This document shows, one piece after another, positions 49,811 through 54,077 of a stretch of 64,000 nt of DNA. The stretch is from Candidatus Iainarchaeum sp. (GTDB taxonomy: Archaea > Iainarchaeota > Iainarchaeia > Iainarchaeales > 1-14-0-10-31-34): the NCBI GenBank assembly GCA_040755695.1, contig JBFMAK010000004.1:34112-98111 (forward strand). Direction: 5' to 3'. The position numbers and the translations under genes are program-made. How positions within the stretch are numbered: position 1 is the stretch's first letter; each line of letters opens with the position of its first letter. Under the pieces are notes generated by a model that saw only the letters and a program-made list of their open reading frames with translations, ran no database searches and was not told where the DNA came from.

Positions 49811-50709
49811 TTATCGCCCGCCTCGCTGAATTTTTTAACTCCCTTCATTACTCCTGCGCTCCAATAAATTCTCCCAAGAAAGAGCAGAGGAGCATAAAGA
49901 ATAACTTCAGGGGAATATTTTAAATTCTTCCATAAAACAAACGAAAAGGAAACAACGAAAAGAACTGGAAGGAACAGAAGCATTTCATAAAAATTTTTCC
50001 TGAAGAGAAAACTCCAAGAGAAAGGATTATCGTATTTCAGATTCACGTATGCTTCCCCTATGCCGTGCTCAAATCTGTGGAATAAAAAATTTTTCAGGTT
50101 TTTTATCTTGTGAAAGTGCTTTGCTTTAGCTTCAGGGAGAAAAACTATCCTGTAATTTTTATTTTTTAGTTTGATTGAAAGTGCAGTATCCTCTGTCCAA
50201 AGCACTTCCTCATCAAATCCATTCAATTCATTAAATATTTTCTTTCTAATGCAGAAGTTTGCGCTTGTTGCAAGAACTCTCTCTTCTTTCTTCATTTTTG
50301 GGTTCAGTGAATGCGCCCAGTCAAGGTGGATTGCTTTTGAGTAAATATTTTTTTCTCCGTCAATCAATGACCCATAAACAGCAGTTGTTTCTCTGTTCAT
50401 CATTTCTTTAACCATTATTTTAAGCCATTTTTTTTCTGGAGCACAGTCAGAGTCAAGAAAGGCTATTATTCCTGCTTTTGCTTTCCTTGCCCCAAGATTT
50501 CTTGCAGCAGCAGGACCTTTATGTTTTTGCTGAACCAAAATTACCCCCTTAAATTTTTTTACTATATCCCTTGTGCTGTCGATGCTTCCATCATCCACTA
50601 CTATGACCTCAAACTGGCTTTTAGGGAAATCAGATTTAAGAATTGAACTTAATGTAAGGGCAATTGTTTTCTCTGGATTATAGCAGGGAATTACAATAGA
50701 CACTTTCAT
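49807..50709 (-). CDS. Glycosyltransferase family 2
   Basis: VSIVIPCYN, VDDGS, GPAAARNLG, FLDSDC and TEDTAL. Confidence 0.93.
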   Translation of the reverse strand: MKVSIVIPCYNPEKTIALTLSSILKSDFPKSQFEVIVVDDGSIDSTRDIVKKFKGVILVQQKHKGPAAARNLGARKAKAGIIAFLDSDCAPEKKWLKIMVKEMMNRETTAVYGSLIDGEKNIYSKAIHLDWAHSLNPKMKKEERVLATSANFCIRKKIFNELNGFDEEVLWTEDTALSIKLKNKNYRIVFLPEAKAKHFHKIKNLKNFLFHRFEHGIGEAYVNLKYDNPFSWSFLFRKNFYEMLLFLPVLFVVSFSFVLWKNLKYSPEVILYAPLLFLGRIYWSAGVMKGVKKFSEAGDK

Positions 50710-50994
50710 ACATTAATATTGACTGCTTAAAATAAAAAATAAGAGGGCGGAAAAGGAGAGAAAAAATCTCCTTGCAATTTCCTTTACAAAAATTTTTTCC
50801 GCCCTTGTTGTTGCATGCCAACCACTCTCTTTTATTGAATTGGGTTGAAACCTTCCTGAAGGACAAAAAAAATGCAAAATATAAATAATAGTTTTTTGGT
50901 ACAAAAAACGTAAAATTGGCTGAAAACAACTGGGGGTTAGAAATTCAAACCAAATATTTAAATATATCCAAGGACACATTATTAATCCTAAAAA

Positions 50995-51040
50995 AAACAA
51001 CATATAGTGTTTTATTTATTACAAACACAACATATAGTGA
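50995..51040 (+). promoter_or_regulatory. Tandem NrdR boxes
   Basis: AAACAACATATAGTGT (50995-51010) and ACACAACATATAGTGA (51025-51040), 30 bp apart, fitting the NrdR-box consensus acaCwAtATaTwGtg; downstream of an AT-rich TATA-like stretch. Confidence 0.85.
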
Positions 51041-51079
51041 GGTTAATTTGTTTTTTAATGAAATTGAGGGGTGAATAGC

Positions 51080-53182
51080 ATGAAGTGTCCTTTCTGCAAT
51101 AACACTGAGACAAGAGTAATAGATAAGAGAATTAATGACGAAGAAAAGAGCAATAGGAGGAGAAGGGAATGCCTAAAGTGCGGCAGGCGCTTTACAACCT
51201 ACGAGAGAATTGAATCCCTGCCCAAAATCGAATTCGTAGAAAAAAGGGATGGAAGAATTGTTGCCTTTGACAAGGATAAAATCACTGAAGCCATATTCAA
51301 GGCAGCACAGTCTGTTGGAGGAACAGACAAGAGCATTGCAGAAGGGCTTTCAGACAAGGTCATAGAATTATTAGAACAAAAATTTGGCTCAAACAAGACA
51401 CCAAAAGTTGAAGACGTCCAGGACGCAGTAGAAAAAGTATTGATAGAAGAAGGCCACACAAAAACAGCAAAAGCATTCATTTTATACAGAGAGAAAAGAA
51501 AAGAAATGAGGGACCTAAAATCATATCTTACAAAAGCAAACGAAATAATTAACAGCTATCTGAATATTAATGACTGGCGCGTAAAAGAGAACGCCAACGC
51601 AGACTTCTCTATTTCTGCATTTCAGGCGCACATTTCAGGTGAAATAATTGCAGAATACGCACTAAACAATATTTACCCAAAAGAAATAGCTGAAGCGCAC
51701 AGAAAAGCAGACTTCCACATTCACGATTTGAGTGTTGGAACCTTCACTGCTTACTGCGCTGGCTGGAGCTTAATGCAATTGTTAATGGAAGGATTTAATG
51801 GAGTGAGAGGAAGGGTTTCAGCAAAGCCTGCAAGGCACTTCAATGCAGCCTTAGGCCAGTTAGTCAACTTTTTTGGTACTCTTCAAAATGAATGGGCTGG
51901 CGCTCAAGCAGTATCATCTTTTGACACCTATTTTGCACCTTTAGTGAGAGAAGACAAACTGAATTACAAGCAGGTAAAACAGAGCATACAAGAATTCGTT
52001 TATGGAATCAATCAGACAACGCGCTGGGGCAACCAGGTTCCATTCACTAATATTACCTTGGATTGGACTGTGCCTGAAGACATGAAAGACCATAAAGCAA
52101 TAGTTGGGGGGGAACTGCAGAAAGACACCTATTCAGATTACCAGGAAGAAATGGACTGGATCAATAAGGCATTCATTGAGGTAATGAGCGCAGGAGACAT
52201 GAATGCAAGAATCTTCACCTTCCCTATTCCAACATACAATATTACAAGAGACTTTGACTGGGGCACAGAGAATGCTAACCTTCTATTTGAAATGACAGCA
52301 AAGTATGGAATCCCATACTTCCAGAACTTTATTAACAGTTCCTTGAAGCCTCAGGATGTGCGCAGTATGTGTTGCAGATTACAGTTAAGGTTAGATGAAT
52401 TGAGGGCAAAGACTGGAGGCTTGTTCGGCTCAGGAGAACAGACAGGAAGCATTGGGGTAGTAACAATAAACATGCCTAAGATTGGCTTTCTTTCAAAAAG
52501 CAGGGAGGAATTCTTTGAAAGGCTCGGAAAATTATTGGTGCTGGCAAAGGATTCACTTGAAATAAAAAGAAAGGAAGCAGAAAAAAACATGCAGCAAGGC
52601 CTGCTTCCTTACACTAAAAGATATTTAGGGCACTTGAACAACCATTTCTCCACGATTGGATTAGTGGGAATGAATGAGGCAGGCATTAATTTCCTGCACC
52701 AGAGCATTGCAGAAAAAGAGGGAAAGCAGTTAGCCTTGGATGTATTAGACTTCTTCAGAGAGAAATTAACTGAATTCCAGGCAGAAACAGGCCACATCTA
52801 TAACTTGGAGGCAACGCCAGCAGAAGGAACGTCTTACAGGCTTGCAAGAATTGACAAGAGGAATTACCCTGAAATAATTACAGCAGGGAATGGAACGCCT
52901 TTCTATACAAATTCAACGCACCTGCCAGTGGACTACACTGACGACATATTTGAGGCATTAAAGCACCAGGACGAACTTCAAACAAAATACACTGGGGGAA
53001 CAGTATTGCACGGCTTCATTGGAGAGAGGATTGACTCAAACCAGTCATGCAAGAAGCTGGTGAAGAAGATTGCAGAGAATTTCAGGCTGCCTTACTTCAC
53101 TGTAACCCCAACATTCAGCATCTGCCCAGTGCACGGCTACATCAAGGGAGAGCACAAGAACTGTCCCACGGCAGCAAAATAA
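51080..53182 (+). CDS. nrdD: Class III ribonucleotide reductase core fused to an N-terminal NrdR zinc ribbon and ATP-cone; lacks the C-terminal glycyl-radical loop
   Basis: MKCPFC...RRRRECLKCGRRFTTYER (NrdR); VEKRDG...AKAFILYR ATP-cone; HIHDL, SMCCRL, EATPAEG and YTGGTVLH; GAGGGGTGA RBS. Confidence 0.93.
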   Translation: MKCPFCNNTETRVIDKRINDEEKSNRRRRECLKCGRRFTTYERIESLPKIEFVEKRDGRIVAFDKDKITEAIFKAAQSVGGTDKSIAEGLSDKVIELLEQKFGSNKTPKVEDVQDAVEKVLIEEGHTKTAKAFILYREKRKEMRDLKSYLTKANEIINSYLNINDWRVKENANADFSISAFQAHISGEIIAEYALNNIYPKEIAEAHRKADFHIHDLSVGTFTAYCAGWSLMQLLMEGFNGVRGRVSAKPARHFNAALGQLVNFFGTLQNEWAGAQAVSSFDTYFAPLVREDKLNYKQVKQSIQEFVYGINQTTRWGNQVPFTNITLDWTVPEDMKDHKAIVGGELQKDTYSDYQEEMDWINKAFIEVMSAGDMNARIFTFPIPTYNITRDFDWGTENANLLFEMTAKYGIPYFQNFINSSLKPQDVRSMCCRLQLRLDELRAKTGGLFGSGEQTGSIGVVTINMPKIGFLSKSREEFFERLGKLLVLAKDSLEIKRKEAEKNMQQGLLPYTKRYLGHLNNHFSTIGLVGMNEAGINFLHQSIAEKEGKQLALDVLDFFREKLTEFQAETGHIYNLEATPAEGTSYRLARIDKRNYPEIITAGNGTPFYTNSTHLPVDYTDDIFEALKHQDELQTKYTGGTVLHGFIGERIDSNQSCKKLVKKIAENFRLPYFTVTPTFSICPVHGYIKGEHKNCPTAAK

Positions 53183-53205
53183 ATAATTGAATGAGGTGAC
53201 ATAAA

Positions 53206-53352
53206 ATGGAAGAAAAGGAATGCGGAAAAGAATGCGAGGTATACAGCAGGGTAGTAGGCTATTTCAGGCCAGTACAGTCATGGAATGAAGGAAAACAAGA
53301 GGAATTCAAGCACAGGAAAACATATGAAATAAAAGAAAAAGAATTAAAGTAA
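53206..53352 (+). CDS. Stand-alone glycyl-radical domain of NrdD (48 aa)
   Basis: Manual translation MEEKECGKECEVYSRVVGYFRPVQSWNEGKQEEFKHRKTYEIKEKELK; own GAGGTGA RBS at 53193-53199; not in the ORF track. Confidence 0.9.
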   Translation: MEEKECGKECEVYSRVVGYFRPVQSWNEGKQEEFKHRKTYEIKEKELK

Positions 53353-53372: not shown

Positions 53373-54077
53373 ATGGAATTCAAGGGAATACAGAAGACTA
53401 CTTTAATTGATTTTCAGGGGCACATTGCCTCTACTTTATTTCTTTCGAAATGCAATTTCTCTTGCCCTTACTGCCAGAACCCCTTGCTTGTAAGGGATGA
53501 TAAAAGCCTTGTTTCAATCCCTGAAAAGGAAATGATTGAACTGCTTGACGAAAGAAAGGAATTCATTGAAGGCATCTGTATTACAGGCGGAGAGCCAACG
53601 CTCTACGGCAAAGAATTAAAGGAATTCGTTAAGAGAATAAAAAGGGAATTGAAGCTGAAAGTCAAGCTGGACACTAACGGAAACAATCCCTTGATATTAA
53701 AAGAATTAATTCAAGAAAAATTACTGGACTACATTGCAATGGACATCAAAGGGCCTTTAGATAAATACGATGAAATTGCGAGAGTAAAGGTAGACAAGAA
53801 GGCAGTGCAGGAGAGCATTGACCTGATAATGAATTCAGGTCTTGAGTACGAGTTCAGGACAACCATTGTACCGGAATTTTTTTCAAGAGAAGATGCAATC
53901 TCAATAGGAAAATGGCTTATGGGAGCAAAAAAATACTTTTTGCAGCAATTCAATAATCAAACAGAATTGCTTGACCCCGAATTCAAGGAAAAAAAGCCTT
54001 ATCCTCCAGAGAAATTAAAGGAATTAGCACAATTAATGAAGCCTTTCTTTGGGGAATGCGGTGTCAGGGGAATCTGA
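53373..54077 (+). CDS. nrdG: Anaerobic RNR activating enzyme
   Basis: KCNFSCPYCQNP, ITGGEPT, KLDTNG, AMDIK and EFRTT. Confidence 0.93.
   Translation: MEFKGIQKTTLIDFQGHIASTLFLSKCNFSCPYCQNPLLVRDDKSLVSIPEKEMIELLDERKEFIEGICITGGEPTLYGKELKEFVKRIKRELKLKVKLDTNGNNPLILKELIQEKLLDYIAMDIKGPLDKYDEIARVKVDKKAVQESIDLIMNSGLEYEFRTTIVPEFFSREDAISIGKWLMGAKKYFLQQFNNQTELLDPEFKEKKPYPPEKLKELAQLMKPFFGECGVRGI

Follow-up and report, generated by a model that had tools for sequence, protein, structure and literature searches.

A class III ribonucleotide reductase of Candidatus Iainarchaeum that is probably made as two chains, with the glycyl-radical loop on a separate 48-residue peptide

We analyzed a stretch of 64,000 nucleotides (nt) from Candidatus Iainarchaeum sp. 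(Iainarchaeota; GenBank assembly GCA_040755695.1, contig JBFMAK010000004.1, positions 34,112 to 98,111 of the forward strand), here called the window, whose own numbering is used throughout. It carries the genes of a class III, glycyl-radical ribonucleotide reductase (RNR), NrdD, and of its activase, NrdG. A working enzyme of this class is likely made here as two polypeptides, encoded in an operon of nrdD-large, nrdD-small and nrdG, with the radical glycine on the small chain. This reading rests on gene structure, conservation, purifying selection on both parts, exact complementarity of the two chains to the family profiles, and the status of the enzyme as the only RNR of its genome. From the genes we infer the physical assembly of the chains, the inter-chain zinc site and the activity.

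The three genes follow one another on the same strand, as seen in the list of open reading frames (ORFs) and by reading the sequence directly. The features of the locus are the following.

50997-51009 and 51027-51039, + strand: two copies of ACAACATATAGTG, 30 bp apart, read directly, 40-85 nt 5' of nrdD
51066-51074, + strand: ribosome-binding site GAGGGGTGA of the large gene, 5 nt before ATG 51080
51080-53182, + strand: nrdD large chain, 700 residues; NrdR-type zinc ribbon, ATP-cone and class III RNR barrel (PF22811, PF03477, PF13597)
53123-53125, 53132-53134 and 53162-53164, + strand: candidate zinc ligands Cys, His and Cys of the large chain, followed by the residues TAAK and the TAA stop
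53183-53205, + strand: intergenic gap of 23 nt with stops in all three frames and a Shine-Dalgarno sequence, GAGGTGA, at 53193-53199, 6 nt before the next ATG
53206-53352, + strand: nrdD small chain, 48 residues; ATG 53206, stop 53350-53352; positions 526-562 of 562 of PF13597
53221-53223, + strand: Cys6 of the small chain, homologue of zinc ligand 4; the chain also has Cys10
53257-53259, + strand: radical Gly18 of the small chain, in RVVGY, ahead of a WNxGKxxEF tail
53373-54077, + strand: nrdG, radical S-adenosylmethionine (SAM) activase of 234 residues; TIGR02495 (NrdG2), 196.7 bits against a cut-off of 131

The large ORF ends with ...FSICPVHGYIKGEHKNCPTAAK (in a longer stretch, ...TPTFSICPVHGYIKGEHKNCPTAAK) and its TAA lies at 53180-53182; the small ORF translates to MEEKECGKECEVYSRVVGYFRPVQSWNEGKQEEFKHRKTYEIKEKELK. 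For the large gene, ATG 51080 is a likelier start than the GTG 51071 of the ORF list, as it stands behind GAGGGGTGA and gives the 700 residues found in the relative P0121. The mechanical start of nrdG at GTG 53361 is probably also wrong, and ATG 53373, 20 nt past the stop of the small ORF, is preferred; both chosen starts agree with the proteins of relatives and have ribosome-binding sites. The first-pass annotation, made from the sequence of the window, had described this order (end of the large ORF, 23-nt gap, GAGGTGA, 48-residue ORF, then nrdG), and direct reading agrees with it throughout. The reading frame differs between the two nrdD ORFs, and each of the three frames is stopped within the gap, so that no single-base error can join them. 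No promoter-like or terminator-like site was found within the 23-nt gap.

The two chains divide the family profiles between them. The Pfam NRDD profile (PF13597, 562 positions) is split without loss or overlap: the large ORF matches its positions 1-526 (E 1e-171) and the small one its positions 526-562 (E 4e-12), so that both together cover positions 1-562; NCBIfam NF006126 is divided likewise, into 4-647 and 646-683 of 684. The scores of the large chain (572 bits for PF13597, and 1042 bits for NF006126 at a cut-off of 548) identify it as a class III RNR NrdD, and it has the finger loop with the double Cys (SMCCRL). The radical motif SRVVGY is missing from this chain and is found on the 48-residue one, which aligns to residues 608-645 of the NrdD of Thermotoga maritima. 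At E values up to 0.1 the peptide matched only PF13597, with no match to the Gly_radical family of the pyruvate formate-lyase (PFL) type. An alignment of 19 stand-alone peptides has 16 invariant columns. In all described members of the NrdD family, barrel and radical domain share a single polypeptide; here they are on two ORFs. Judged by its sequence, the locus is a variant of the class III NrdD family with an architecture other than that of the described members.

The same layout is found in related genomes. A relative from a different sample (SRR9617926; locus L001) has the same 700-residue chain, 48-residue chain and nrdG, with 94% identity in the peptide and 92% in the large chain. Its gap has 19 nt rather than 23 and a changed sequence, and GAGGTGA and the ATG are kept. 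Between the two, the large chain has a dS of 0.67 and a ratio of nonsynonymous to synonymous substitution rates (dN/dS) of 0.068, and the small chain has a dN/dS of 0.18; we conclude that purifying selection acts on both parts. The nrdG gene takes the same position in L001 and in four other loci (L002, L004, L005 and L120).

Across the phylum NrdD is present in 113 of 215 genomes. The counts that follow are a manual tally of the match table, with 61 genomes of the same order studied in detail. In about 78 genomes the large frame stops at profile positions 517-541 and the remainder lies in a second frame (confirmed in 26 junctions of the same order), 14 are interrupted by in-frame stops in the same interval, about 17 have a contiguous nrdD, and about 6 are cut by contig ends. 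Thus about 90 of the 113 genomes with NrdD are split at profile 517-541, and the split is the usual layout of NrdD in this phylum. This answers the survey of the split position proposed in the first-pass annotation, whose view that NrdD is naturally divided, with the glycyl-radical loop on a peptide apart from the core, is upheld by these counts and by the loci of relatives, which show the division to be conserved. We fetched and read 31 junctions from the phylum; the split ones, with 28 junctions read base by base, have overlapping ORFs, TAAATG junctions or gaps of 20-60 nt. A start codon is kept at every split junction, and all those with a gap also have a GGAGGTGA-like site. Such varied junctions, always with a start codon, fit separately initiated and often translationally coupled genes of long coexistence.

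The split is also found in Margulisiibacteriota, Saganbacteria, Micrarchaeota and groundwater contigs of 0.5-1.2 Mb. With the 48-residue chain as query, 249 small proteins were matched in a word-indexed collection, many of them on contigs of 25 kb to 1.2 Mb. Four loci were inspected (on groundwater contigs, in GCA_964632135 and in a metagenome-assembled genome of Margulisiibacteriota); in all four the large NrdD ORF stops a few residues past "CP", a ribosome-binding site and a small ORF come next, and nrdG lies downstream. When 1.84 billion representatives were searched exhaustively with HMMER, the 150 best matches of the peptide were mostly proteins of 45-110 residues, the longest had 380, and none was a full-length NrdD. 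In public annotation the small ORFs are usually unnamed, and a few are called "hypothetical protein" or bear a fragment-like reductase name.

The genome of the window (1.30 Mb in 42 contigs, 99.85% complete) encodes a single NrdD core and a single radical peptide, and we found no catalytic domain of a class I or class II RNR in it. Because this is the only RNR of a nearly complete genome, the enzyme is probably an obligate two-chain RNR, as the first-pass annotation had supposed.

To follow the split over time, we aligned 114 large chains (that of the window and those of 113 of the 120 closest clusters) and built a tree on the part upstream of the zinc motif. The glycine motif is missing from 78 of these chains, which are therefore scored as split, and present in 36, scored as contiguous. 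This label changes 10 times on the tree, with 8 changes forced by well-supported branches; shuffled labels gave a mean of 30.9 changes, and none of 500 shuffles was as low. Large clades are nearly pure for the split state (42 of 43 and 19 of 20 members). Few changes and large clades indicate a state that is stably inherited yet has flipped several times. In some contiguous relatives a long insert separates zinc ligand 3 from ligand 4 and contains M-x-K-C or V-K-C (for example CPVEVGGGEKMAKCNKDTEVYSR); these resemble the starts of small ORFs and suggest that some contiguous genes are re-fused split genes. A contiguous protein of 752 residues on a 23-kb Logan contig (P0140) has two tandem terminal glycyl-radical modules, ...CEKNTEIFSRVVGYYRPVQNWNEGKK...CGKDSEVFSRVVGYYRPVQNWNKGKK..., and looks as if a downstream peptide gene had been fused to it.

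The break falls inside a zinc site. The NrdD of T. maritima coordinates Zn2+ by CxxxHx6CxxC (PMC4493059), and the enzyme of Prevotella copri has a single mobile domain at its C-terminus that comprises the zinc site, the glycine loop, which is buried, and the tail (PMC11226230). A scan of a genome collection supplied the canonical motif and few extra split pairs: 72 of its 80 NrdDs are contiguous, and these mostly read C-x2-H-G-Y-x2-G-E-x3-C-P-x-C-G-x2-[CT]-E-V-Y-S-R-V-V-G-Y. In the window the large chain reads C-P-V-H...C-P (C-x2-H-x9-C), then TAAK and the stop, and the peptide reads MEEKE, then C-G-K-E-C-E-V-Y-S-R. By phmmer, Cys6 of the peptide pairs with the last zinc Cys of the T. maritima enzyme, residue 608. 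The proposal that the break lies within the zinc site thus holds at this locus, with C, H and C on the large chain and the homologue of the fourth ligand at residue 6 of the peptide.

We compared the ligands in 28 related split pairs. The large chain has no Cys at the ligand-4 position in 23 of them (the residue is A, T, P, E, V or another), and the peptides of these pairs have a Cys at -5 from the glutamate of EVYSR in 23 of 23 cases, which is the spacing of the contiguous enzymes. The other five large chains retain CPxC, and the Cys has been lost from three of their five partner peptides. Fisher's test on this complementarity gives p = 0.003, uncorrected for phylogeny; as relatedness links the pairs and only three families supply the five exceptions, the value overstates independence. 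A second class of split has a complete site, CPxxH, on the large chain and is cut later. The constant Cys at -5 in pairs whose large chain lacks the fourth ligand suggests an inter-chain zinc site, which on this pattern of residues we consider reasonably likely at the locus in the window.

Structure models were obtained with AlphaFold2. The peptide alone (19 homologues) gave a low-confidence beta-hairpin around the glycine and a short helix, with a predicted local distance difference test score (pLDDT) of 64. Since the chains of the window differ in frame, a pseudo-fusion was made from the relative L120, where the large ORF ends in TAA followed by an in-frame ATG, with the TAA read as Gly. This model of 720 residues (53 aligned sequences) had a mean pLDDT of 84.1 and a predicted template modelling score (pTM) of 0.81, with values of 70 for the linker and 91, 79, 88 and 83 for successive blocks of the peptide, and Foldseek placed it nearest to solved class III RNRs. 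The model is compatible with a peptide that folds on binding. As evidence this is weak, since the alignment includes contiguous homologues, which bias the model to the canonical fold, and since no coordinates were returned.

In the assembly that we propose, the large chain would supply the ribbon, the ATP-cone, the catalytic barrel with the finger-loop cysteines, and the first three zinc ligands. The 48-residue chain would be initiated at its own Shine-Dalgarno sequence and ATG, 23 nt past the stop of the large chain, and would bring the fourth ligand, Cys6, the beta-hairpin with Gly18 that inserts in the barrel, and the C-terminal tail. Once docked, the peptide would have its N-terminus pinned to the large chain by a zinc knuckle completed in trans, and NrdG would then take a hydrogen from the glycine.

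Other explanations of the locus were weighed against this one. A broken gene, or an artefact of assembly or sequencing, could be argued from the metagenome-type assembly in 42 contigs, but is scarcely credible given the stops in all three frames next to a perfect ribosome-binding site and ATG, a layout shared by about 90 genomes from many independent assemblies, the purifying selection on both parts and the exact complementarity to the profiles. We give equally little credit to a single chain made by translational recoding, either by frameshifting or by a hop from AAA 53177-53179 to AAA 53203-53205: identical AAA codons do flank the gap, the first of them followed by the stop, in formal likeness to the take-off and landing codons of phage T4 gene 60, but AAA is very common in this AT-rich DNA, no stimulatory structure is predicted at the junction (fold z = +1.0), and relatives have quite different junctions, from overlaps and TAAATG to gaps of 60 nt, with a separate start codon in each. 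A stronger competitor, although we think it the less likely account, is a working two-chain enzyme whose zinc site is not shared. In that case the large chain would use its three ligands with water or another side chain, or bind no metal, and the peptide would be held only by insertion of hairpin and tail in the barrel, its N-terminal cysteines being leftovers of CPxCG or having another role. In favor of this, large chains often have Glu at the Cys4 position (as in CPVEV), and Glu is able to bind zinc; Cys at -5 is missing from 68 of 247 stand-alone peptides; and the second class of split keeps a complete site, CPxxH or CPxC, on the large chain. On the other side, in the window and in several other large chains without Cys4 the residue is Ala, Thr, Pro or Val, which are not ligands, and the peptide Cys at -5 has the exact canonical spacing in all 23 such pairs.

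Several results count against a working two-chain enzyme with a shared site. About half of the genomes of the phylum have no NrdD, so RNR may be dispensable in some host-dependent members, and the argument that this enzyme must be functional is weakened. An exact look-up of both proteins in a collection of 15 billion proteins gave no match, hence no independent assembly of the exact sequence. The 68 stand-alone peptides elsewhere without Cys at -5 (it is present in the other 179) indicate that completion in trans is not universal, the complementarity itself comes from 28 related pairs with CPxC cases in three families, and the pseudo-fusion model carries the bias described above.

Two ideas about why the gene was split were also considered. 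In PFL, oxygen cleaves the chain at the radical glycine and rescue by GrcA is established (PMC8683613). By analogy, the split may have been selected as a cheap exchangeable cartridge, in which a fresh peptide reloads an intact 80-kDa core after oxygen cleavage at its glycine. Besides the PFL precedent, this could draw on the mobile glycyl-radical domain of the P. copri NrdD (PMC11226230), on an additional peptide gene, unlinked to the first, that three genomes of a related genus carry, with one copy behind a rubrerythrin gene, and on peptide genes with no NrdD core within 3 kb at 45 of 80 viral-contig loci, as well as one in a phage-like context on 16 contigs. We nonetheless find the cartridge improbable, as the genome of the window has a single peptide gene that is translationally linked to the core, repeated fission and re-fusion fits near-neutral toggling, and a 2026 review of glycyl-radical enzymes describes spare-part proteins beyond PFL as yet to be determined (PMC13450708). 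The first-pass annotation had taken the oxygen-sensitive part for a replaceable subunit; the data from this genome lend that no support, the one peptide gene being of the NrdD type and not of the PFL Gly_radical type. With one peptide gene and a core that lacks a radical domain, the peptide is the regular radical part of the enzyme and not a spare like GrcA.

The other idea, also from the first-pass annotation, is that the split lets the NrdR-fused core repress transcription when it is without the radical peptide. An NrdR-type zinc ribbon does open the large chain (62 bits; fused segment at 51080-51215), it is the only ribbon of this type in the genome, and two box-like ACAACATATAGTG repeats lie upstream. 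The ribbon with the ATP-cone scores 73 bits against TIGR00244, below the cut-off of 124.65, and matches NrdR entries of the PDB at E 5e-12; where free-standing NrdR has about 150 residues and scores above the equivalog cut-off, the two domains are here fused to NrdD. The repeats resemble the published consensus of NrdR boxes and are candidates for such boxes, and auto-regulation by the fused ribbon at these repeats is plausible on the sequence. Such auto-repression needs no split, however; DNA binding should be just as possible for a contiguous enzyme that lacks its radical. Of the 78 split relatives 59 have no ribbon, and some contiguous relatives do have one (the association, p = 0.018, is mostly due to one clade), and nothing ties DNA binding to occupancy by the peptide. 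A role of the split in freeing a repressor is therefore unsupported, and we hold it highly unlikely.

The unlinked genes for 48-residue NrdD-type peptides are located at 1725-3207 of L029 (which corresponds to contig C7 of genome G051), at 83506-83631 of contig C79 of G093, and at 7653-7781 of contig C31 of G094. The copy in G051 overlaps the stop of the rubrerythrin-like gene, which is itself downstream of genes for a Fur/PerR-like regulator and MsrB. In the genome of the window no second copy was found. The viral-contig loci (L121-L200) are from IMG/VR; in addition to the 45 with a small gene and no NrdD core within 3 kb, 21 of the 80 have a contiguous nrdD. The peptide in the phage-like context (P0073; L201 and L202) is flanked on its 16 contigs by an amidase-like gene and by numerous small unknown ORFs.

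Inteins, one or two per gene, interrupt many nrdD genes of the phylum near profile positions 50, 155 and 260, as judged by Pfam PF14528 or PF14890 in the cluster proteins. Carriers include G005, G007, G008, G020, G033, G044, G046, G048 and G057, with open frames of 1000-1700 residues; the copy in the window has no intein. An intein, intron or RNA element at the junction was rejected in view of a gap of only 23 nt, the lack of any Rfam match nearby, and the position of the relatives' inteins elsewhere in the barrel. Rfam gave instead two sub-threshold matches at 50700-50842. One of them, to the IS128 sRNA (50700-50809; 32.6 bits, with a gathering score of 80 for the family, E 5e-4), is probably due to chance and lies in the leader of a divergent glycosyltransferase operon.

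Other variants of the gene were seen among the loci collected. In Syntrophomonas palmitatica JCM 14374 (L098, NZ_BBCE01000014.1) the frame with the radical motif is open for only 81 residues upstream and includes the whole zinc motif; unlike the split described here, the break lies further upstream in nrdD, and it may be an error of the draft sequence. Nine contiguous proteins of about 790-820 residues (P0142, P0155, P0159, P0162, P0179, P0212, P0224, P0225 and P0230) have a thioredoxin-like domain, WxxHCPHCP...GTPTVILFD, C-terminal to the radical domain, which fits a thioredoxin-dependent enzyme of the NrdD2 type; glycine motifs of the CKTHGY type occur in thioredoxin-fused contiguous enzymes. 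At the Margulisiibacteriota locus L005 a thioredoxin gene is directly upstream of nrdD.

Among known systems, the locus is closest in its parts to single-chain NrdD with NrdG, above all to enzymes of the thioredoxin type such as that of T. maritima (PDB 4COI and 4U3E; NF006126/PRK08270). It shares with these the profile, the ATP-cone, the barrel, the double-Cys finger loop, the positions of the C/H/C/C zinc motif, the RVVGY loop, an adjacent activase of the NrdG2 type and the modelled fold. It differs in that the radical domain is cut in the middle of the zinc knuckle, with its second half in a separate gene, and in the N-terminal NrdR ribbon. GrcA (YfiD) of Escherichia coli is likewise a small free-standing glycyl-radical loop that has a cognate radical-SAM activase and works inside a large barrel. 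GrcA is, however, of the PFL type (Pfam Gly_radical), has about 127 residues and coexists with a full-length PFL that has a radical domain of its own, whereas the peptide in the window is of the NrdD type, has 48 residues and a putative metal ligand, and serves a core without a radical domain. The split class II enzyme NrdJa/NrdJb of Pseudomonas aeruginosa (PMC4520616) is also an RNR divided near its C-terminus into adjacent genes, the second chain being the C-terminal part with the zinc finger, but it belongs to another class with another cofactor, and NrdJb is a large folded protein that provides reducing cysteines and not the radical. NrdR (PDB 7P37) has the same ribbon and ATP-cone; the copy in the window is fused to the enzyme, with no shown link to the split. 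Burnim et al. (2022) regarded split domains as particular to class II (PMC9669993). In the literature that we searched there was no description of a split class III RNR, and a radical glycine off the catalytic chain was found only in GrcA for PFL, other class III RNRs and glycyl-radical enzymes having it on-chain. What is new at this locus is the cut in the zinc knuckle with complementary ligands, the majority status of the split in the phylum, the status as sole RNR, and the co-occurrence with an NrdR fusion.

A more far-reaching possibility, to which we assign a low probability, is that the class III RNR of most of the phylum and of many anaerobic lineages may be a true hetero-oligomer with an exchangeable radical peptide of 5-6 kDa stapled by an inter-chain zinc. 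If that is so, the unlinked copies and the lone phage-like copies would be cartridges for replacement or hijacking, and the first spare-part system outside PFL. On the two-chain reading itself, an NrdD that is made as two chains in the majority of an archaeal phylum would mean that the radical domain can work untethered. It would offer a system for three questions. The first is how the activase reaches a buried glycine, where a free 48-mer could be activated ahead of docking; the second is the function of the conserved zinc site, which here would be an inter-subunit clamp; the third is whether exchange of the peptide repairs oxygen damage. Since the large genes look truncated and the small ones are unnamed, automated surveys could misjudge the RNR capacity of DPANN archaea and of uncultured anaerobes.

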